From an uncultured Burkholderiaceae bacterium (GTDB lineage: Bacteria > Pseudomonadota > Gammaproteobacteria > Burkholderiales > Burkholderiaceae_C): a stretch of 64,000 nt of DNA. A model generated the notes under the pieces. The model was not told the DNA's origin. It did no database searches and saw only the letters and a program-made list of their open reading frames with translations. Shown here in pieces: positions 54,134-63,007 of this stretch. A program made the position numbers and the translations under genes. The stretch covers positions 1,227 to 65,226 of the forward strand of contig CAYJLV010000022.1 of the NCBI GenBank assembly GCA_964371405.1. Reading direction: 5' to 3'. Each line of letters starts with the position of its first letter. Position 1 is the stretch's first letter.

Positions 54134-55435
54134 TCAGCGGCTGTACGGCCCCCAGGCGGGCTCGCGCACGTCGGCCAGCGACGAGACGAGGCGCGCCTTG
54201 ATCTTGCCATCGAGGGTGGTGGTCATCAACACGTCGCGCCCCTGGGCGCGCGTCGCATAGATGATCAGCCGGCCGTTGGGCGCGAAGCTCGGGCTCTCGT
54301 CTTCGGTGGTCTCGGTGACGGCCTGCGCCGAGCCGCCGGCGACGTCCATCACCATCAGCTTGAACGCGCCGCCCTGGCGCGTGATGTAGGCCAGCATGCG
54401 GCCGTCGGGGCTGATGCTCGGGCTGATGTTGTAGCCGCCCTCGAAGGTGACGCGCTGCACCGCGCCGCCGCCGGCGGGCATGCGATAGATCTGCGGGCCA
54501 CCGCCGCGGTCGCTGACGAAATAGAGCGACTTGCCGTCGGGCGCGAATACGGGCTCGGTGTCGATCGCGCTGCTCGTCGTCAGCCGCGTGACGCCGTTGC
54601 CGCCGCGGCCGAGCGCGTAGAGCTGCGAGCCACCGTCGCGCGTCAGCGTCGCGACGAGCTGGCGCCCGTCGGGCGACCAGGCCGGCGCGCTGTTCGAGCC
54701 GCGGAAGTTGGCGACCATCGAACGCTTGCCGGACCACACGTCCTGCACCCAGATCGCCGCCTTCTGTCCCTCGAACGAGACATAGGCCAGCTCGCGACCC
54801 TCGGGCGACCAGGCCGGCGAGATGATCGGCTCGGGGCTGTTGAGCGCGACCTGCGCGCCCTCGCCGTCGGCGTCGGCGATGCGCAGGGTGTAGTGGTTGC
54901 CTGCCTTCGTGACGTAGGCGATGCGCGTCGAGAACACGCCCTTCTCGCCGGTGAGCTTTTCGTAGACGTAGTCCGAGATGCGGTGCGCCGCGAGACGCAG
55001 GTCGCCGGCCGGCACGGCGCTGCTCTGGCCGCCGATCTCGGCGCCCTTGACGACGTCCCAGAGCTTGAAGCGCACGTCGAAGCGGCCATCGGCGAGCCGC
55101 GTCACCGAGCCGCCGACCAGCGCGTCGGCGGCGCGTCCGCGCCACTCGCTCATCGCCGGCTGCGCGCGCTCGTCGACTGTGGCGTTGTTGTCGATGCCCT
55201 TGAACAGGCCGCTGCGCTCGAGGTCGGCGCGCACGATCGCCGACAGCGCCAGGCCCGCGCTGTTCTCGTCGCGAAAGCGCGCGATCGCGATCGGCACCTG
55301 CGTCGCGCCGACGCCCGAGATCTCGACGCGGAATTGCGCGAGCGCCGGCCAGGCCAGGCCGGCGCTGCAGGCGCCGATGAAGCTGCGTCGTGGCCACATG
55401 ACTTTCGATGATCCGACAGGGGGCATTTGGTTCAT
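54134..55435 (-). CDS. tolB: Tol-Pal system beta-propeller protein TolB
   Basis: TolB N-domain plus WD-like repeats (PAWSPDG, PSISPDG, PSFAPNG). Start chosen at ATG 55435; an alternative is ATG 55399. Confidence 0.9.
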   Translation of the reverse strand: MNQMPPVGSSKVMWPRRSFIGACSAGLAWPALAQFRVEISGVGATQVPIAIARFRDENSAGLALSAIVRADLERSGLFKGIDNNATVDERAQPAMSEWRGRAADALVGGSVTRLADGRFDVRFKLWDVVKGAEIGGQSSAVPAGDLRLAAHRISDYVYEKLTGEKGVFSTRIAYVTKAGNHYTLRIADADGEGAQVALNSPEPIISPAWSPEGRELAYVSFEGQKAAIWVQDVWSGKRSMVANFRGSNSAPAWSPDGRQLVATLTRDGGSQLYALGRGGNGVTRLTTSSAIDTEPVFAPDGKSLYFVSDRGGGPQIYRMPAGGGAVQRVTFEGGYNISPSISPDGRMLAYITRQGGAFKLMVMDVAGGSAQAVTETTEDESPSFAPNGRLIIYATRAQGRDVLMTTTLDGKIKARLVSSLADVREPAWGPYSR

Positions 55436-55587
55436 TGCACCGCGCGGCGGTGGAGCCGCGATTCGTATCCGGATGTGTCGGCTGCGCGACGTCGCGCAGC
55501 AGCAGGCATTGTAGGCAGGCAGCCGGGGCCGCGCGGCCCCGGCGGGCGGAGGTTCCATAATCGCACCCGCCGCCATCTCCGCCCCGC

Positions 55588-57312
55588 ATGCCCTCGCTTT
55601 CGTCGCGCCTCGCGCGCATCGCCCCGTATTACGCGAGCGGACGCCGTGGCTTCGTCGTCGCCATCGCCGCGATGGTGATCGCAGCAGCGACCGAGCCGGC
55701 GATTCCCGCATTGCTGCAGCCCGTGCTCGACCGCGGCTTCCAGCAGGGCACGCTGCCGCTGTGGTTCGTGCCGGCGGCGCTGATCGGGCTGTTCCTGGTG
55801 CGCGGCAGCGCCGGTTACCTGGCCGATATCGCGCTGGCCTGGGGCTCCAACCGCGGTCTGTTCGAGTTGCGGCGCACGATTTTCGAGCGCGTGCTGACGG
55901 CGCAGCCGGCGCTGTTCGGCGGGCAGTCGGCGAGCAGCCTGACCAACACCGTCGTCTACGAGGCGCTGCAGGGCTCGAACCTGCTCGTCTACTCGCTGCT
56001 GACGCTGCTCAAGGACTCGCTGGCCGTCGTCGCGCTGCTCGGCTACCTGCTGTGGCTGAACTGGCAGCTCACGCTGTTCGTGCTGGTGCTCGCGCCGGCT
56101 GTCGCCATCGTGATGCGGGTCGTCAGCAAGCGGCTGCACCGGCTGACGCTGCAGAGCCAGACCGCCACCGACGAGCTGGCCTACGTCGTCGAGGAGAACG
56201 TGCTCGCGTGGCGCATCGTGCGGCTGCACGGCGCGGCGGCGCAGCAGGCGGCGCGCTTCGCACGCAGCAGCGAATGGCTGCGCCGGCTGATGCTGAAGTC
56301 GACCGCCGCCGGCTCGTCGGTAACGCCGATCACGCAGATGATGGCCGCCGCCGCGCTGTCGGCCGTCATCGCCGTCGCGCTGTGGCAGGGCAAGGAGGGC
56401 GGCACTTCGGTCGGCGGCTTCGTCGCCTTCGTCACGGCGATGCTGATGCTGATCGCGCCGGTGAAGCGCCTGTCGGACCTGGCCGGCCCGCTGACGCGCA
56501 GCCTGACGGCGCTGGAGCGCGGCGTCGCGCTGATCGAGGCTCACCAGCCCGAAGCCGGCGGCACGCACGACCCCGGCCGCGCGAAAGGCCACGTCGAGCT
56601 GCGCGACGTGTCGGTCCGCTACCGCGATGACCAGTCGCCCGCGCTCGACGGCGTGACGCTCGAATTGCGCCCGGGCGAAGCCGTCGCGTTGGTCGGCCCC
56701 TCGGGCGGCGGCAAGTCGACGCTGGTCAACCTGCTGCCGCGCTTCATCGAGCCGACCGGCGGCGACCTGCGCCTCGACGGCCACCCGATCGACTGGTGGG
56801 AGACGCAGGCGCTGCGCCGCCAGTTCGCGCTGGTCAGCCAGGACGTCGTGCTGTTCAACGACACGATCGCCGAGAACGTGTGCCTCGGCGGCACACTCGA
56901 CCGCGAGCGCGTGCAGGGCGCACTGCGCAGCGCCAACCTGGCGGACTACGTCGCGACGCTGCCCCAGGGCATCGACACCATGATCGGGCACAACGGCAGC
57001 GCGCTGTCGGGCGGCCAGCGCCAGCGGCTGGCGATCGCGCGCGCCATCTACAAGGACGCGCCGATCCTGATCCTCGACGAGGCGACGTCGGCGCTCGACT
57101 CCGAGTCGGAGCGCTCGGTGCAGTCCGCGCTCGAGCTGCTGATGAAGGGCCGCACCTCGCTCGTCATCGCGCACCGGCTCTCGACGATCGAGCGCGCTGA
57201 CCGCATCGTCGCGCTCGAGGCCGGTCGCATCGTCGAACAGGGCACGCACGCCGAGCTGCTGGCGCGCGGCGGCCTCTATGCACGCCTGCACGCCTTGCAG
57301 TTCAGGAGTTGA
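55588..57312 (+). CDS. msbA: lipid A export ABC transporter permease/ATPase MsbA
   Basis: Six-TM domain plus NBD (GPSGGGKST, LSGGQRQRLAIARA, ILILDEATS). 574 aa. Confidence 0.85.
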   Translation: MPSLSSRLARIAPYYASGRRGFVVAIAAMVIAAATEPAIPALLQPVLDRGFQQGTLPLWFVPAALIGLFLVRGSAGYLADIALAWGSNRGLFELRRTIFERVLTAQPALFGGQSASSLTNTVVYEALQGSNLLVYSLLTLLKDSLAVVALLGYLLWLNWQLTLFVLVLAPAVAIVMRVVSKRLHRLTLQSQTATDELAYVVEENVLAWRIVRLHGAAAQQAARFARSSEWLRRLMLKSTAAGSSVTPITQMMAAAALSAVIAVALWQGKEGGTSVGGFVAFVTAMLMLIAPVKRLSDLAGPLTRSLTALERGVALIEAHQPEAGGTHDPGRAKGHVELRDVSVRYRDDQSPALDGVTLELRPGEAVALVGPSGGGKSTLVNLLPRFIEPTGGDLRLDGHPIDWWETQALRRQFALVSQDVVLFNDTIAENVCLGGTLDRERVQGALRSANLADYVATLPQGIDTMIGHNGSALSGGQRQRLAIARAIYKDAPILILDEATSALDSESERSVQSALELLMKGRTSLVIAHRLSTIERADRIVALEAGRIVEQGTHAELLARGGLYARLHALQFRS

Positions 57313-57315
57313 ACC

Positions 57316-57906
57316 ATGACGAATCCGCCCATCAGCCGCTGGCCGGTGCCCGCCCTCGAAGATCTGCCCGACGACATCCGTGTGCGCATCCTCGAAGTGC
57401 AGGCCAAGGCCGGCTTCGTGCCCAACGTGTTCCTCACGCTGGCGCACCGCCCCGACGAGTTCCGCGCCTTCATGGCCTACCACGACGCGCTGCTGCTGCG
57501 CGAGTCGGGCCTGACCAAGGGCGAGAAGGAGATGATCATCGTCGCCACGAGCGGCGCCAACGGCTGCCTCTACTGCGTCGTCGCGCACGGTGCGATCCTG
57601 CGCGTCTACGAGAAGAAGCCCCTCATCGCCGACCAGATCGCGGTCAACTACCGCAAGGCCGACCTCACGCCGCGCCAGCAGGCCATGCTCGACTTCGCGA
57701 TGAAGGTCTGCACCGACTCGGCCGCCATCGCCGACGCCGAATTCGACGCGCTGCGCGCGCACGGCTTCGGCGATGAAGACATCTGGGACATCGGCGCCAT
57801 CACGGCCTTCTTCGGTTTGTCCAACCGCATGGCCAACCTGATCTCGATGCGGCCGAACGACGAGTTCTATCTGATGGGGCGGGTGCCGCGGGCGGCGAAG
57901 AGCTGA
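57316..57906 (+). CDS. AhpD-like / carboxymuconolactone decarboxylase family peroxidase-related protein
   Basis: CMD-domain motif with CxxC (GANGCLYCVVAHG). Starts 4 nt after the msbA stop. Confidence 0.8.
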   Translation: MTNPPISRWPVPALEDLPDDIRVRILEVQAKAGFVPNVFLTLAHRPDEFRAFMAYHDALLLRESGLTKGEKEMIIVATSGANGCLYCVVAHGAILRVYEKKPLIADQIAVNYRKADLTPRQQAMLDFAMKVCTDSAAIADAEFDALRAHGFGDEDIWDIGAITAFFGLSNRMANLISMRPNDEFYLMGRVPRAAKS

Positions 57907-57989
57907 GCGGCGTAGCCGAGTACCTTCTCTGCGAACGCGATCATGTCGTCGATGTCGAAGCGCCATTCGCGATCGGCGGGTTCAGACAT
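57867..57989 (-). pseudogene. N-terminal stub of a DUF86/HepT-type toxin gene
   Basis: MSEPADREWRFDIDDMIAFAEKVLGYAAQ resembles the DUF86 N-terminus. The frame then runs antisense into the ahpD-like 3' end and stops after 40 codons, whereas full-length proteins have about 115-140 aa. Confidence 0.5.
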
Positions 57990-58002
57990 GGACTGCCTCG
58001 CG

Positions 58003-58194
58003 CTATTTGAACGGCTGCAATTCGGGCCGCAGCGCCTTGTCGGTGACGAGATCGACCGGCCGCCCGAGCAGATCCTCCAGGAAGAACTGAATCCCAAAGC
58101 AGCGATCCGACGTGGCAGGGCCGTTGAAGGAAGCCAGGATGTCGACGTCGCTGTCGGATCGTGCTGCATCGCGCGCGGTCGATCCGAGCGCGGT
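58003..58194 (-). pseudogene. minimal nucleotidyltransferase (MNT antitoxin) remnant with in-frame TGA and no start codon
   Basis: Reads (TGA)TALGSTARDAARSDSDVDILASFNGPATSDRCFGIQFFLEDLLGRPVDLVTDKALRPELQPFK*. This is a GS-x9-13-D-x-D NTase core. The upstream frame has no ATG/GTG/TTG start. Its stop lies 13 nt before the HepT stub ATG. Confidence 0.55.
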
Positions 58195-58299
58195 TCATTC
58201 GAGACTCTGATTCTCAGCGAGGTCGATACGAGCGAAGTCTGGGCGCAGTCCTGTCAGATCCCGATTGTCGCTGCGTCTCGTCGATGCACAGGCAACCCC

Positions 58300-58521
58300 T
58301 CACAGCAGCACGATGTCGTATTGAGGGGGCGGATTCGGAAAGCGTTGACGGGACAACGACTTGCGCTCACGCCCTCGGCTTGTGTCGGTTCGAGCTACCC
58401 GTCTGGCTACCCTCGACCATCGGGCTTTGCCGAGACGCCGAAACACGTCGTGATCCACAAGGTCATCGCCCGAGACGTTCATCTTGATGAAGGCTACACC
58501 AATCCCGTTTGGGATCCGCAT
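58300..58521 (-). other. 73-codon ORF ending in an RNase G-like C-terminus (possible displaced rng 3' remnant)
   Basis: Ends ...QRFPNPPPQYDIVLL*, compared with the rng end ...AEPTGSPERYDIVLM*. Its ATG shares one nt with the HEPN stop (TGATG). Coding status is uncertain. Confidence 0.3.
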
Positions 58522-58928
58522 CAGAGCACGCCTTCCGCCCAGGCTGCGAACTCGTCCAACTCGACCAGCAGCCGCTGCGCCTCTTCGCGCGTGGTGCTTC
58601 GAGCGCCATAGTTGACTTCATCCTTGCGGCCGATCAGCTTGCGAAAGAATTTCTCCTGCTTGTCGGGCAGGCGGTTGCCCAACACCTCGCGCAGGAGCCT
58701 CGGCGCACTCTGGTGGTCCTGCTTGTTGACCACGCCCTTAGCCTTGGCTGTCACCGCGTCGCCGTACGCGATCGTCGCGGTGACCATCAGCGTGATGGCG
58801 CCGTTGTAGCTCTTGCTCTGGCCGAGCACGACCAAGCTGCGCGCCGACTCGTGGAACTCGCGCGCCTGCAGCAGCCGAGCCGACGAATGCACGGCGTCGA
58901 CCGCCTTGCGAGGGCCCTGATTCGTCAT
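58521..58928 (-). CDS. HEPN-like protein
   Basis: 135 aa and helical. ARLLQAREFHESARSLVVLGQSKSYNGAITLMVTATIAYGDAV ... GRKDEVNYGARSTTREEAQRLLVELDEFAAW has a HEPN-like layout. It shows R101-x5-Y107 where the canonical motif would be Rx4-6H. Its ATG overlaps the NTase stop (ATGA). Confidence 0.6.
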   Translation of the reverse strand: MTNQGPRKAVDAVHSSARLLQAREFHESARSLVVLGQSKSYNGAITLMVTATIAYGDAVTAKAKGVVNKQDHQSAPRLLREVLGNRLPDKQEKFFRKLIGRKDEVNYGARSTTREEAQRLLVELDEFAAWAEGVL

Positions 58929-59575
58929 GCGGTTGCCTTCGCGAGCCTCCGGCGCGCTTGATCGGGCGCCGCGCCCTTGAGGACTCGGCCATCACGCACG
59001 ACATCGGACCACCAGGGGTCGTCTTCGGGTAGGGCCGCCAGCTCCTTCGGCGTGAGCGCCGTCAGCGAGATGCGCAGTTGCTGGCCATCTTCGAGAGGCA
59101 TCAGATCCTCCCGGACCTGATCGGCCACAGCCTGTGAGCGGACCAGGATCGCGATGTCGAGATCGCTGGCGGGCGAGTCCTCCCCGCGTGCGACGCTGCC
59201 GTAGAGCCACGCAGCGCTGACCGCCGGGCCGCGCCTGGCCAGTACCTCGCGGATCGATTCGAGCAAGGCATCCCAGCGCCGTTGTTCTTCCTGAAACAGA
59301 GCGACGAGCGCGCCGGAAAAAGGGTGTGACGGTTTCAGTGCGTACAGCTGAGTTCGCCCTGAACCGTGGATGATCACCAGTTGCTGTCGGGCGAGCGTGT
59401 CCAGAACCAGCCTAACGCCCTGCGGCGTGAGGCCTGCCACCCCGGCGAGTTGTGGCGCCGATTGCGGTGCCCGGTCTGCCACCAGCGCGCGCAGGACGCG
59501 CACGCTTCCGGCGCTACCCAGGATGCTGGTGAGCGGGTACCGAAGGTGGCTTTGGGTCTGGGACAGCGCAGGCAT
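58925..59575 (-). CDS. winged-helix DNA-binding domain fused to a minimal nucleotidyltransferase
   Basis: N-terminal MarR/ArsR-like wHTH (VRVLRALVADRAPQSAPQLAGVAGLTPQGVRLVLDTLARQQLV). NTase motif LYGSVARGEDSPASDLDIAIL (G126-S127 ... D138-x-D140). Confidence 0.75.
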   Translation of the reverse strand: MPALSQTQSHLRYPLTSILGSAGSVRVLRALVADRAPQSAPQLAGVAGLTPQGVRLVLDTLARQQLVIIHGSGRTQLYALKPSHPFSGALVALFQEEQRRWDALLESIREVLARRGPAVSAAWLYGSVARGEDSPASDLDIAILVRSQAVADQVREDLMPLEDGQQLRISLTALTPKELAALPEDDPWWSDVVRDGRVLKGAAPDQARRRLAKATA

Positions 59576-59580
59576 GCCGA

Positions 59581-59609
59581 AACATATGACTTTGCTTACG
59601 ACAAGTCAA
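59581..59609 (-). promoter_or_regulatory. sigma-70-like promoter TTGACT-N17-TATGTT for the wHTH-NTase/HEPN pair
   Basis: On the minus strand, TTGACT (59609-59604), a 17-nt spacer, then TATGTT (59586-59581). Only 5 nt (tcggc) lie between the -10 and the ATG at 59575, and there is no SD. Confidence 0.5.
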
Positions 59610-59632
59610 GTTTCTCTATGGAAAGTTGACTT
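59603..59632. promoter_or_regulatory. 12-bp inverted repeat overlapping the -35 (candidate autoregulatory operator)
   Basis: aagtcaagtttc-tctatg-gaaagttgactt has 11 of 12 complementary positions. It lies in a very A/T-rich spacer (22 G+C in nt 59581-59640). Confidence 0.5.
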
Positions 59633-59753
59633 CTCACTACGCAACCCTACTCGGGTGCACCTGCCGCCGCACTTCGCGGGAGGCACTCTCAACCAGGCGT
59701 CTAGTCCCAAGATGGGACTTCGGTCAATCTCGAGCCCTCGACGGCCGCTTCCA

Positions 59754-61349
59754 TCAGCCCGACCTCCAAACGAGTTCCTCGTCGATGACCTCGATGAACC
59801 TCGCGGCAGTGAAGCCGCCGGGGTAGAGCCCTTCTCGATCCTGCGAGGCCCGCGGTTGCCGCTCAGCGCTTCTCTCGGAGCGCGCAGACAGCAGTCCTTC
59901 CGGGTCGTCGAGCAGGTGGCGGTCGTCGCGCAAGGCGATGAGGATCTCCTCGAGCGAGACCTTGAGGAAGCCGGAGAAGCGCTGGTGATCGCACTCGATG
60001 GACGTGTCGACGATCCAGCCATGGACGTCGGTCAAGGGCACGTGCGCAGGGCCGCCGAACGCCTCGACCAGCGAGGAGTCGACCTCCAGCGCCGACCGCA
60101 CTGCGGCAAGCTTCCGACCGATCTGCCGGCCCGCCCTGCGCAAGGTGGATGTCCCGTGCACCCAGGCGTCGCGCTGTGACTGGCGCACGTAGGTCGACTT
60201 GATCTCCAGGACGAACAGATGGCCGTCGCGTGCGGCGATCACGTCGACCTCACCGGCCTCCTTCGCGTCGGCGGGAGGATTCCAGTTCGTCACGACGCGG
60301 AAGCCTCTCCCGCGCAGAAGGTCCGCCAGCCGAGTCTCGATCTGCTGTGTCTCGTCCCGAGCCTCGGTGCGCCGTGACCCCAGGCGGCGCAGATTGTTGA
60401 TGGCCGCAGTGCTGTTGTTCTGCGTGCCGACGACCCAGGGCAACTGGACGAACGTCGCGCCGAACCGGAGCACCGGGCGCTCGAACAGGCGTGGATGCAG
60501 TCCGCCCTCACCGCGCTGGAGCCGCTCGGCGATCGCCACGAGGTCATAGGTCCAGAAGTCCAGGATCGCCGCGGCCATTCGGGCGCTGCCCTGAGGCTGC
60601 GCGTCGTTGACCGTCCAGCCGGTGATGTTCGCGATCCTCGCCGACCGATCGGACCAGGTCAGCGGCCAGCGGTTCTGCAACCCATCGCGCAGGCCGTTGA
60701 AGGCCAGTGCGCGCAGGCCGGCGATCCAGTCTCCGCTCTGCGAGGTCAGCACCGCGAACTCGGCGAGGAAGTCGCGCAGGAAGAACACCGACATCAGCTC
60801 CAGCGAGAGCAAGGCCTGGAACAGATCCACGCTCTCGCCGGACTCGGCCACGACCCGGTCGCCGACCCCGTACACCTCGCGCAGGCGCAGCTGGGTTCGC
60901 ATCGCCCGGATGTAGGCGAGCCGGTTGTGATCCGCGTTCTCGGGACTGCCGATTCGGGCATGTGCGAGCGCCGAGTCGGCAAAGGCACCGGCAGCCCGGT
61001 AGAACCAGTAGCCGTGCAGGCGCTCGAGCTTGCTGCCGTCGCAAGACCAGCGGGCCCTGCTTGCCGGATCGATCTCGACAATCTCCAGTCGGTTGCCACG
61101 TCGCTCGAATCGGATCGAGTCATCGTGGCAGAAAGCGTCGATGCTTCTCGACATGAACTCGTCGAGCTCGATCTGCGCCTCCAGCATCGTGCCGAAAAAA
61201 TCCAGCGTCGCGTGCGCGGCTGAAGCGTCCGGGAACTCCGGGAACAGCGCCGCCGAGATGAAGCTCCTGACAGAACCGGCGATGGCCTGGTCGTCCAGGC
61301 GCAAGGACGCCGGGGCAGCGCTTCGCAGCTTGCCCCGCTCTCCTGCCAT
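59754..61349 (-). CDS. 531-aa protein with an unrecognised N-terminal region and a C-terminal PD-(D/E)xK (restriction-endonuclease-fold) signature
   Basis: aa 333-384, ETQQIETRLADLLRGRGFRVVTNWNPPADAKEAGEVDVIAARDGHLFVLEIKS, matches the E ... GEiDlIa ... lvfvEvK pattern of YraN/NERD/Mrr-type nucleases (D369, E382, K384). AAGGAG lies 8 nt upstream of the ATG. Confidence 0.7.
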   Translation of the reverse strand: MAGERGKLRSAAPASLRLDDQAIAGSVRSFISAALFPEFPDASAAHATLDFFGTMLEAQIELDEFMSRSIDAFCHDDSIRFERRGNRLEIVEIDPASRARWSCDGSKLERLHGYWFYRAAGAFADSALAHARIGSPENADHNRLAYIRAMRTQLRLREVYGVGDRVVAESGESVDLFQALLSLELMSVFFLRDFLAEFAVLTSQSGDWIAGLRALAFNGLRDGLQNRWPLTWSDRSARIANITGWTVNDAQPQGSARMAAAILDFWTYDLVAIAERLQRGEGGLHPRLFERPVLRFGATFVQLPWVVGTQNNSTAAINNLRRLGSRRTEARDETQQIETRLADLLRGRGFRVVTNWNPPADAKEAGEVDVIAARDGHLFVLEIKSTYVRQSQRDAWVHGTSTLRRAGRQIGRKLAAVRSALEVDSSLVEAFGGPAHVPLTDVHGWIVDTSIECDHQRFSGFLKVSLEEILIALRDDRHLLDDPEGLLSARSERSAERQPRASQDREGLYPGGFTAARFIEVIDEELVWRSG

Positions 61350-61374
61350 GCCCAGCTCCTTGGCACCGGATCGC

Positions 61375-61406
61375 AGCTACCACTCTAGCTACCATTCCAG
61401 CTTCCA
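61375..61406. repeat. three 8-bp direct repeats AGCT(A/T)CCA at exact 12-bp phasing
   Basis: AGCTACCA at 61375, AGCTACCA at 61387, AGCTTCCA at 61399. They lie 26-57 nt upstream of the 531-aa ORF start. Confidence 0.5.
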
Positions 61407-61525
61407 AATTCTGGTGGAACAGGGTGGGACTTCAAGAGTCCTGGTGAAGCGCTGAAACCCGGAATCGCCAGGATTCATGCGGGTTTGCGGGTGGCAAGTG
61501 GGTCGGCGTGAGACGCCGTGAAACC

Positions 61526-63007
61526 TCACATCAGAACAATGTCGTAGCGCTCAGGCGACCCCGTCGGCTCGGCCCGCAGCGAGATCGGCTTGCCGATGAA
61601 TTCCGACAGCGCCGCCAGGTGCAGCCCCTCCTCGTCGAGCAGCATCTCGACGACGGCGGCCGAGGCGACGACGCGGAACTCCTTGGGGTTGAACTGGCGC
61701 GCCTCGCGCAGGATCTCGCGCAGGATGTCGTAGCAGACGCTGCGCGGCGTCTTGACCTGGCCCTTGCCTTCGCAGGTCGGGCACGGCTCGCACAGCATGT
61801 GGGCGAGCGATTCGCGGGTGCGCTTGCGCGTCATCTCCACCAGCCCGAGCTGCGTGAAGCCGCTGACGGTGATCTTGGTGCGGTCGCGCGCGAGCTGGCG
61901 CCGCAGCTCGGCGAGCACGGCGACGCGGTGGTCCTCGCGCGCCATGTCGATGAAGTCGAGGATGATGATGCCGCCGAGGTTGCGCAGCCGCAGCTGGCGA
62001 GCGATCGCCTGCGTCGCCTCGAGGTTGGTCTTGAAGACGGTGTCGTCGAAGTTGCGCGCGCCGACGTAGCCGCCGGTGTTGACGTCGACCGTCGTCAGCG
62101 CTTCGGTCTGGTCGATCACCAGGTAGCCGCCCGACTTCAGCTCGACGCGCCGCGCCAGCGCGCGCGTGATCTCCTCGTCGATGCCGTAGAGGTCGAATAT
62201 CGGCCGCTCGCCCTTGTAATGCTCGAGCTTCTTCACTGCACCGGGCGTGAAGGCCTCGCCGAAGGCGCGCAGCGTCTCGTACTGCAGCTTCGAGTCGATG
62301 CGGATCGACTGCGTCGCGTCGTTGGTCAGGTCGCGCAGCACACGCTCGCCGAGGCTCAGGTCCAGGTGCAGCAGCGTGCCGGGCGGCGCCGCCTGGCTGC
62401 GCTCGCGCACCGCGGCCCAGGTGCGGCGCAGGTAGCGGATGTCGTCGGCCAGCTCGGCGTCGGTCGCGTCCTCGGCGTTGGTGCGCAGGATGAAGCCGCC
62501 GCCCACGGTGCCGGCCTCGGGCGCGGCGGCCAGCAGCGCCATGCGCGCGCGAAGTTGCTCGCGCAGCTCGGGCGAACCGATCTTCTGGCTGATGCCGATG
62601 CGCTCGTCCTGCGGCAGGAAGACCAGCAGCCGGCCGGCGATGCTGATCTGCGACGACAGGCGCGCACCCTTGGTGCCGATCGGGTCCTTGATCACCTGCA
62701 CCGTCAGCGGTTGGCCCTCGAACACGAGTCGCTCGATCGGCGGCGGTGCCGCGTCGCCGGCGCCGTTGCGCGCCGGCATGTTGGCGAGGTGCAGGTCGGC
62801 AACGTGCAGGAACGCGGCGCGTTCGAGGCCGATGTCGACGAAGGCCGACTGCATGCCCGGCAGCACGCGCGCGACGCGGCCGGCATAGATGTTGCCGACC
62901 AGCCCGCGTTCGAGCGCGCGCTCGAGGTGCAGCTCCTGGACGGCGCCGTTCTCGACGATCGCGACCCGCGTTTCCTGCGGCGTCCAGTTGATCAGGATGT
63001 CTTGCAT
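61526..63007 (-). CDS. rng: ribonuclease G
   Basis: MQDILINWTPQETRVAIVENGAVQELHLE..., an S1 domain and RNase E/G catalytic-core motifs. 493 aa. Confidence 0.95.
   Translation of the reverse strand: MQDILINWTPQETRVAIVENGAVQELHLERALERGLVGNIYAGRVARVLPGMQSAFVDIGLERAAFLHVADLHLANMPARNGAGDAAPPPIERLVFEGQPLTVQVIKDPIGTKGARLSSQISIAGRLLVFLPQDERIGISQKIGSPELREQLRARMALLAAAPEAGTVGGGFILRTNAEDATDAELADDIRYLRRTWAAVRERSQAAPPGTLLHLDLSLGERVLRDLTNDATQSIRIDSKLQYETLRAFGEAFTPGAVKKLEHYKGERPIFDLYGIDEEITRALARRVELKSGGYLVIDQTEALTTVDVNTGGYVGARNFDDTVFKTNLEATQAIARQLRLRNLGGIIILDFIDMAREDHRVAVLAELRRQLARDRTKITVSGFTQLGLVEMTRKRTRESLAHMLCEPCPTCEGKGQVKTPRSVCYDILREILREARQFNPKEFRVVASAAVVEMLLDEEGLHLAALSEFIGKPISLRAEPTGSPERYDIVLM

Follow-up and report, generated by a model that had tools for sequence, protein, structure and literature searches.

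ZwsA (Zowangsin) of Pseudomonas aeruginosa is a stand-alone, island-borne defence protein, described in a 2026 preprint, that stops the single-stranded RNA (ssRNA) phages PP7 and LeviOr01 and not the DNA phages tested (bioRxiv 10.64898/2026.04.06.716636). In vitro, PP7 and MS2 genomic RNA were cut by ZwsA and lacZ mRNA was not (bioRxiv 10.64898/2026.04.06.716636). Its subunits have 716 residues and a deduced mass of 82.4 kDa; mutation identified E535, D567, E580 and K582 as essential residues of its NERD domain, substitutions in its N-terminal ('VHS') and C-terminal ('S4') domains impaired defence, and full protection depends on its N-terminal, middle and C-terminal regions alike (bioRxiv 10.64898/2026.04.06.716636). 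Upx is a second defence nuclease that acts as a single protein with a C-terminal D...ExK core (PMC13099982, PMC13601566).

Here we compare with these systems a 531-amino-acid (aa) open reading frame (ORF) on the minus strand of a 64,000-nucleotide (nt) stretch of DNA from an uncultured Burkholderiaceae bacterium (contig CAYJLV010000022.1, positions 1,227 to 65,226; the whole stretch is called the window). The gene is a degenerate, 5'-truncated, integrase-fused member of a family with an experimentally characterised representative. We put at about 80% the probability that the ORF is a deletion-made, in-frame chimera in a decaying defence island, flanked by the RNase G gene on one side and the CMD and msbA genes on the other, and that it is an impaired or dead relic of a ZwsA-family gene.

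A truncated copy of a widespread family

The first-pass annotation, made from the sequence by eye, had reported a 531-aa ORF, which we recovered at the same place, with an ATG start (Table 1). The window is 70% G+C and carries spurious ORFs of up to 844 aa close to this one, antisense to real genes; since the 844-aa ORF (55432-57966, minus strand), antisense to msbA, is evidently spurious, the length of an ORF does not show it to be a gene in such sequence. By comparison with its relatives, the 531-aa ORF is genuine coding sequence and did not arise by chance in high-GC DNA, because 1,074 of the 8,000 candidates scored are homologues at E<=1e-3 and its ratio of nonsynonymous to synonymous substitution rates (dN/dS) is ~0.20 against its closest relative. 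Nearly all homologues are 710-770 aa long. A profile search run exhaustively over 1.84 billion representatives returned 769 clusters (50% identity) at E<=1e-3, 218 of them at E<=1e-30, with full-length representatives of ~700-770 aa, and members were found in at least 198 species genomes, mostly of Beta- and Gammaproteobacteria and including many wastewater or activated-sludge bacteria. With that many clusters and genomes, the earlier description of the protein as an orphan was wrong.

Homologous proteins are labelled here with P-numbers and the contigs or loci of relatives with L-numbers. The best match, P0001 (744 aa), is 96% identical, and its residues 220-744 correspond to window residues 7-531. 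At the nucleotide level, homology to the P0001 gene begins abruptly at 61331 and continues to 59743 at 95.5% identity (blastn), and a tblastn search over the window found no remnant of the family's first 219 residues. These comparisons indicate that the window ORF is not a complete gene and that the first ~219 residues of the family are missing from it. The complete ZwsA-type architecture, an N-terminal module followed by the middle, NERD and C-terminal regions, is absent from the window copy; an alignment of 64 family members has 17 invariant columns in the N-terminal module, all of them lost here. Within the part that is retained, residue 238 (60636-60638, minus strand) is Arg in the window and Lys (K451 of P0001) in 64/64 full-length relatives; no second change was seen at a position that is invariant elsewhere.

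An integrase start joined in frame to a defence gene

The sequence upstream of the breakpoint has a separate origin. Positions 61332-61525 of the window match positions 1288-1481 of L038, a contig from an uncultured Methylibium genome, at 98.5% identity over 194 nt, and in L038 this block follows the RNase G stop codon directly. The block holds the intergenic region, an AAGGAG Shine-Dalgarno sequence, the ATG and the codons for MAGERG; the Shine-Dalgarno sequence, a consensus one inherited from the integrase, lies at ideal spacing, 6 nt before the ATG of the window ORF. The corresponding ATG of L038 starts a 404-aa ORF (1464-2678) that continues MAGERGRLTDLQIRHW and encodes a tyrosine integrase (Arm-DNA-bind_3, 1.2e-17; Phage_integrase, 1e-18). 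A three-way alignment shows the window tracking the integrase to GGGGCA and switching in frame, at 61331, to the family gene, which it follows from AAGCTGCGAAGC. Because the alignment passes from integrase to family gene in frame, the window ORF is, judged from the junction, an integrase(1-6)::family(220-744) chimera made by deletion. A sigma-70-like promoter scan and a terminator search of the region upstream of the ORF, after RNase G, found neither.

These comparisons suggest the following sequence of events. Immediately downstream of RNase G, intact islands open with a tyrosine-integrase gene, and they carry a stand-alone ZwsA-family gene for a protein of ~745 aa. A deletion with its endpoints in a short A-GCTG microhomology would have removed everything from integrase codon 7 through family codon 219, so that the integrase upstream region, Shine-Dalgarno sequence, ATG and first six codons would now drive family residues 220-744. 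An intact family member would probably act as the ZwsA preprint describes, as a lone polypeptide that uses its NERD PD-(D/E)xK domain (E...D...ExK) to cut ssRNA-phage genomes while leaving cellular mRNA intact. The window copy keeps the middle region, an intact tetrad and the C-terminal region and has lost the whole N-terminal module, with the break inside a helix. We infer a recently truncated relic, probably impaired or dead for defence and possibly still translated from the integrase signals.

Relationship to ZwsA

A search seeded from a Pseudomonas veronii plasmid member, which matches the family profile over its full length (E=2.1e-162), returned many entries named 'NERD domain-containing protein [Pseudomonas aeruginosa]'. 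Among 11 such P. aeruginosa entries examined, eight carry E, D, E and K at exactly 535, 567, 580 and 582; these eight range from 716 to 717 aa, with exactly 716 in seven, and have masses of 81.6-82.0 kDa. One 716-aa P. aeruginosa protein, P0393, occurs on 272 contigs and matches the family profile at E=1.3e-168. Its residues 204-713 align with window residues 7-529 at 41% identity over 529 aa (E=8e-128), and in this alignment E338, D369, E382 and K384 of the window pair exactly with E535, D567, E580 and K582 of ZwsA. We conclude, with high but not complete certainty and on sequence grounds, that the family is the ZwsA family. When the ZwsA residue positions were sought among cluster representatives, the first matches were Thalassomonas proteins, which we set aside; the P. 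aeruginosa proteins were found only by way of P. veronii. Pfam scans did not reproduce the VHS, DUF647 and S4 labels.

Nuclease core and predicted structure

Window residues 333-385 read ETQQIETRLADLLRGRGFRVVTNWNPPADAKEAGEVDVIAARDGHLFVLEIKS and contain the E...GEvDvI...hhhEhK motif that the first-pass annotation had picked out, together with its proposed catalytic residues D369, E382 and K384, all encoded where expected (Table 1). The four corresponding residues E551, D582, E595 and K597 (P0001 numbering) are invariant in the alignment of 64 members, and the C-terminal extension of the window ORF, a region that the ZwsA authors label S4-like, includes part of the invariant IVDTSIECDHQRF motif. 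Profile searches support a nuclease domain of the NERD/YraN/Hjc type in the C-terminal third. The PADLOC model PDLC02906, 'Viperin-associated NERD', matches window residues 327-529 over model positions 399-542 (E=9.6e-23); Pfam NERD (PF08378) narrowly misses its gathering threshold (E=0.0011; 19.9 bits, threshold 22.1), Pfam Hjc falls below its cut-off (E=0.0028) and NCBIfam YraN is a weak match (1.2e-4). The same picture holds across the 64 relatives: the PADLOC NERD model matches 64/64, while Pfam NERD, their most frequent Pfam match, reaches E<=0.01 in 21/64 (best 8.9e-5), and UPF0102 is matched by 10/64. The NERD-like relationship proposed earlier was thus upheld, and the Shedu (DUF4263)-like one was not, there being no such match at E<=1 in Pfam or PADLOC. 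Mrr_cat and Cap4, also suggested as relatives, gave no match to the window protein at E<=1 in Pfam or PADLOC, and at the same limit none of the 64 relatives matched the Shedu/DUF4263 (PF14082), Mrr_cat (PF04471) or Cap4 models.

For structure prediction we modelled P0001, the 96%-identical full-length relative, with AlphaFold2 (AF2) and the 64-sequence alignment. The model has a mean predicted local distance difference test score (pLDDT) of 84.6 and a predicted template modelling score (pTM) of 0.84. It contains the α-β-β-β-α-β core that the nuclease assignment called for, composed of α542-560, β564-569, β581-587, β590-597, α605-636 and β654-661, with D582 on the second strand and E595 and K597 on the third. 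The truncation point, 219/220, lies inside helix 206-223 of the model.

The ~325 residues ahead of the core had been described as unrecognised N-terminal sequence that could be a sensor or target-recognition domain. They are indeed unrecognised by curated libraries: searches of Pfam, NCBIfam, PHROGs, PADLOC and PDB sequences found nothing for residues 1-325, with the matches in Pfam, NCBIfam, PHROGs and PDB sequences confined to ~325-421 and weak. They are not an N-terminal domain, since the true N-terminal module (~215 aa) is deleted and they form the middle of a longer protein. Modelled alone, window residues 1-325 reach a pLDDT of 60.6 and a pTM of 0.49, versus a pLDDT of ~85-90 in the full-length context; in AF2 terms the middle region is not an autonomous domain. 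Foldseek searches with this poor model (pLDDT 60.6) gave meaningless matches, with no sensor fold and no Upx among them.

With the P0001 model as query, the best Foldseek match in the PDB was a cryo-electron microscopy structure of Upx, 9wuf (probability 1.00, E=1.1e-4, 746 aligned columns, template modelling (TM) scores 0.24/0.17). Weaker matches after it included the PD-(D/E)xK nucleases McrC, AF1548, Cdn1, Hjc, R2 endonuclease and Can2, and a viral structure library yielded nothing below E=1e-3.

The island and its relatives

Between the RNase G and CMD genes, positions 57907-61525 form a 3.6-kb island with a GC fraction of 0.649, compared with 0.705-0.714 in the flanks (Table 1). Its other genes include a winged helix-turn-helix (wHTH) nucleotidyltransferase and an overlapping 135-aa ORF, which look like an intact MNT/HEPN-type pair and are kept in the island of L002. 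After the small nucleotidyltransferase pseudogene, a 40-aa ORF (57867-57992) continues into the CMD gene's 3' end; its resemblance to a HepT start was not confirmed, as it has no Pfam match.

Table 1. Features of the 531-aa ORF and of the island around it, in window coordinates.
Feature	Coordinates	Strand	Evidence
531-aa ORF, chimera	59754..61349	-	ORF list; ATG start; integrase codons 1-6 plus codons 220-744 (and stop) of ZwsA-family gene
Catalytic tetrad E338 (60336-60338), D369 (60243-60245), E382 (60204-60206), K384 (60198-60200)	60198..60338	-	Alignment to P0393; invariant columns
NERD-type PD-(D/E)xK nuclease core, window residues 329-448, α-β-β-β-α-β	60006..60365	-	PADLOC NERD; borderline Pfam NERD/Hjc; AF2; Foldseek
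Middle, mostly helical region, window residues 7-325 (P0001 220-538)	60375..61331	-	Family-wide invariants; pLDDT ~85-90 within full-length model
Conserved C-terminal extension, window residues 449-531 plus stop	59754..60005	-	Invariant columns including I659, D661, T662, D667, H668; PADLOC NERD covers 327-529
Codons 1-6 (MAGERG), from 5' end of tyrosine-integrase gene	61332..61349	-	Identical to start of L038:1464-2678
Deletion crossover, imperfect A-GCTG microhomology	61326..61331	-	blastn breakpoint; three-way alignment
Integrase upstream region between RNase G stop and ATG	61350..61525	-	Similarity to L038; Shine-Dalgarno AAGGAG 61356-61361
RNase G gene, left chromosomal flank	61526..63007	-	RNase_E_G 3.7e-97
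CMD/AhpD-family gene, right chromosomal flank, then msbA	57316..57906	+	CMD 2e-13
wHTH + nucleotidyltransferase (MNT-like)	58925..59575	-	Polbeta 2.6e-9; NTP_transf_2 5.5e-8; PADLOC PDC-M05A 2.3e-16
135-aa partner ORF, overlaps MNT gene by 4 nt	58521..58928	-	Weakly HEPN-like (Pfam HEPN E=0.092, below cut-off)
Small nucleotidyltransferase pseudogene	58003..58251	-	In-frame TGA 58195-58197; NTP_transf_2 7.4e-11
110 nt of unrelated sequence where L002 carries a 1.6-kb PD-Lambda-1 cassette	59633..59742	-	blastn blocks; sequences

The intact, 96%-identical gene occurs on six contigs, L001-L006. Combined, L001 and L002 give the gene order integrase (Integrase_1 type), 187-aa ORF, AbiLi (PADLOC 2.3e-95), AbiLii/RloB (8.5e-26), 744-aa gene, PD-Lambda-1, wHTH-nucleotidyltransferase, 135-aa ORF, CMD-family gene and msbA. 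The PD-Lambda-1 region (L002 3257-4866), between the zwsA-like and MNT genes, carries a 443-aa PD-Lambda-1 gene (SNIPE; DUF4041 plus T5orf172/GIY-YIG; PADLOC 2.2e-142 for L002:3457-4788). In L001 (3391-7646), the overlap of the 744-aa gene with the AbiLii stop suggests co-transcription there. The right-hand island genes are the same in the window, where 59632..58300 is 93.9% identical to L002 (blastn). Because island DNA is 94-95% identical between the window and L002 and the flanking CMD/msbA DNA 77.7% identical, and because the island is low in GC, the island is recently transferred DNA. The locus is a decaying defence island without its integrase. Islands with zwsA-like genes also lie just downstream of RNase G in L007, L038 and L055, and the site looks like an integration hotspot in these Burkholderiales. 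No att repeats, tRNA genes or Rfam families were found at the island borders.

We compared gene neighbourhoods at 80 species-level loci, fetched from the 198 positive genomes. The annotated contexts were of the kind usual for variable defence islands: Wadjet JetABCD with BrxR, AbiE, an SNF2 helicase accompanied by a giant SACS-like protein, recombinases and insertion sequence (IS) elements. In several genomes, as in L089 (1-9958) and L091 (1-9164), the family gene is directly downstream of overlapping genes for a SACS-like protein of more than 2,518 aa and an 880-aa SNF2-type helicase. Unbiased clustering of neighbouring ORFs found no conserved neighbour, the largest cluster covering 7/80 loci, and AbiLi/AbiLii were adjacent in 2/80. 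The ZwsA-type family behaves as a stand-alone gene, because no neighbour is conserved across the 80 loci.

The gene is an intact single ORF in 70 of 75 assessable species-level loci (93%) and is 5'-truncated within its own contig in four of the 75. Family genes split by frameshifts occur in L091 (9207-11476; P0111, on at least 24 contigs from different samples), L097 and L098, and 5'-truncated copies in L099 and on the Aeromonas plasmid pE31A (L095); in the disrupted copies the N-terminal break points range from residue ~110 to ~265. Evolution is faster in the N-terminal ~215 aa than in the remainder of the protein, and tblastn misses the N-terminus in gammaproteobacterial members. We considered natural short isoforms starting at ~210-225 and rejected each candidate: P0092, P0111 and P0130 are genes split by frameshifts whose N-terminal module remains encoded upstream, P0147 and the copy on the Aeromonas plasmid are both 5'-truncated, and the P. 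veronii protein has its full length but a divergent N-terminus.

Weighing the explanations

Several observations count against the view that the window copy is an impaired or dead relic. It shows no decay beyond the truncation, its 525 family-derived codons being free of frameshifts and stops, and continued function is possible. We looked for relaxed selection on the window branch, and the substitution counts gave no signal (18 synonymous to 14 nonsynonymous, against 18 to 12 on the intact relative's branch; Fisher p=0.80). The consensus Shine-Dalgarno sequence is retained at ideal spacing and no terminator was found after RNase G. N-terminally disrupted copies recur, one split form on at least 24 contigs, and the C-terminal ~500 aa could be tolerated or useful alone. 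As to chemistry, ZwsA K582A kept residual activity in vitro, and the ZwsA work rests on a single preprint (bioRxiv 10.64898/2026.04.06.716636). The family was identified as ZwsA through species, length, mass, NERD annotation and four residue positions, not through a deposited ZwsA sequence; and the window protein, 41% identical to P. aeruginosa ZwsA, may differ from it in substrate preference (RNA or DNA). The truncated chimera could then still be a working protein, made from the integrase signals or by read-through from RNase G, and serve under selection as a defending, deregulated or altered-specificity nuclease. Besides the intact frame, the absence of a nonsynonymous excess, the translation signals and the recurrence of split and truncated copies, this idea draws support from the low dN/dS and from the retention of all catalytic and most invariant residues, and Upx, possibly related in fold, offers a precedent: an MD-CTD construct without the N-terminal domain cleaved single-stranded DNA (ssDNA) in vitro as well as the full-length protein did (PMC13099982). 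We nevertheless think it unlikely. The break falls inside a helix of a compact model, the middle region models poorly without its partners, 17 invariant positions are gone and an invariant Lys has become Arg; substitution in the N-terminal domain of ZwsA impaired defence (bioRxiv 10.64898/2026.04.06.716636), and nearly all assessable loci keep the full-length gene. The missing decay is equally explained by a recent deletion, which the 94-95% identity of the island to an intact one would allow. One could also suppose that the C-terminal ~500-530 residues form a self-sufficient nuclease unit and the ~215-aa N-terminal module a detachable regulator or specificity element, the chimera and the split copies being functional variants; such variants might be deregulated, retargeted or working with the N-terminal module supplied in trans. 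This proposal strikes us as rather doubtful.

Two further proposals concern the family as a whole. It might be a compact relative of Upx that senses a phage protein, such as terminase, through the scaffold ahead of the core and then degrades DNA, and not an RNA endonuclease specific to RNA phages. Upx and the family are both single-protein defence nucleases with C-terminal D...ExK cores (PMC13099982, PMC13601566), and 9wuf was the only significant PDB match, ~400-fold better than the next. The superposition is loose, however, at TM 0.24/0.17, a root mean square deviation of 24 Å and 13% identity; the family profile found no match to the 9wuf chain among PDB sequences at E<=10, PADLOC Upx models were matched by 0/64 members at E<=1, and the nuclease-free fragment did not retrieve Upx, though its model is poor. 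We hold this account to be quite improbable. That the family protein is the third subunit, the effector, of an AbiL-type ATPase plus RloB system, and the window gene its orphaned component, is very improbable indeed. The idea stems from L001, L002 and L003, where the 744-aa gene comes after AbiLi and AbiLii with a 4-bp overlap of the AbiLii stop, from the same arrangement in L007, and from L079, which has AbiL downstream. It founders on the neighbourhood counts: AbiLi (AAA_21) and AbiLii (RloB) are within reach in only 2/80 species-level loci and absent from the window, no neighbour is common to more than 7/80 loci, and ZwsA alone on a plasmid protected P. aeruginosa (bioRxiv 10.64898/2026.04.06.716636). 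We rejected AbiL as a conserved partner or third component, an assignment that the 2/80 count largely refutes. A deletion-made chimera that is now a recently truncated, impaired or dead copy of a stand-alone defence gene is the explanation we prefer.

Comparison with known systems

On the explanation we prefer, the gene is a fusion relic, although annotation would present it as a complete 'hypothetical' or 'NERD domain' protein. The locus would also give a base-resolved view of defence-island turnover, in which one microhomology-mediated deletion took the integrase, AbiL and the head of the zwsA gene and left the island immobilised and probably disarmed. The family itself appears to carry ZwsA beyond Pseudomonas, with a betaproteobacterial branch of ~745-770-aa proteins.

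Among annotated families, the window protein shares its nuclease end with NERD and PADLOC PDLC02906, and NCBI names members of the family 'NERD domain-containing protein'; it differs from PDLC02906 in that the first 398 of the 542 model positions are unmatched and no viperin gene is nearby. YraN (UPF0102) and archaeal Hjc have the same minimal E...D...ExK arrangement, and Hjc structures are among the Foldseek matches. Those are single-domain proteins of ~120-140 aa, however, and all matches to them fall below family cut-offs; despite the weak Hjc matches, we found nothing in the window protein that points to a junction-resolving function.

Upx resembles the family in placing a large non-catalytic region ahead of a C-terminal D...ExK core in one polypeptide. 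It differs in its length of 1,272 aa, in its three domains, one of which is a second, atypical nuclease, and in sensing phage terminase or gp16 and degrading ssDNA (PMC13099982, PMC13601566). The AF2 model raises the possibility that the whole ZwsA family is a compact structural relative of Upx, and we regard this fold-level link as a structural lead.

The closest described system is ZwsA itself. The window copy belongs to the betaproteobacterial branch (~745-770 aa, ~41% identical to ZwsA) and has no equivalent of ZwsA residues 1-203, the 'VHS' module, in whose place stand six integrase-derived residues. It is a member of the same family with the tetrad kept, and like ZwsA it is a single gene within a variable genomic or defence island.

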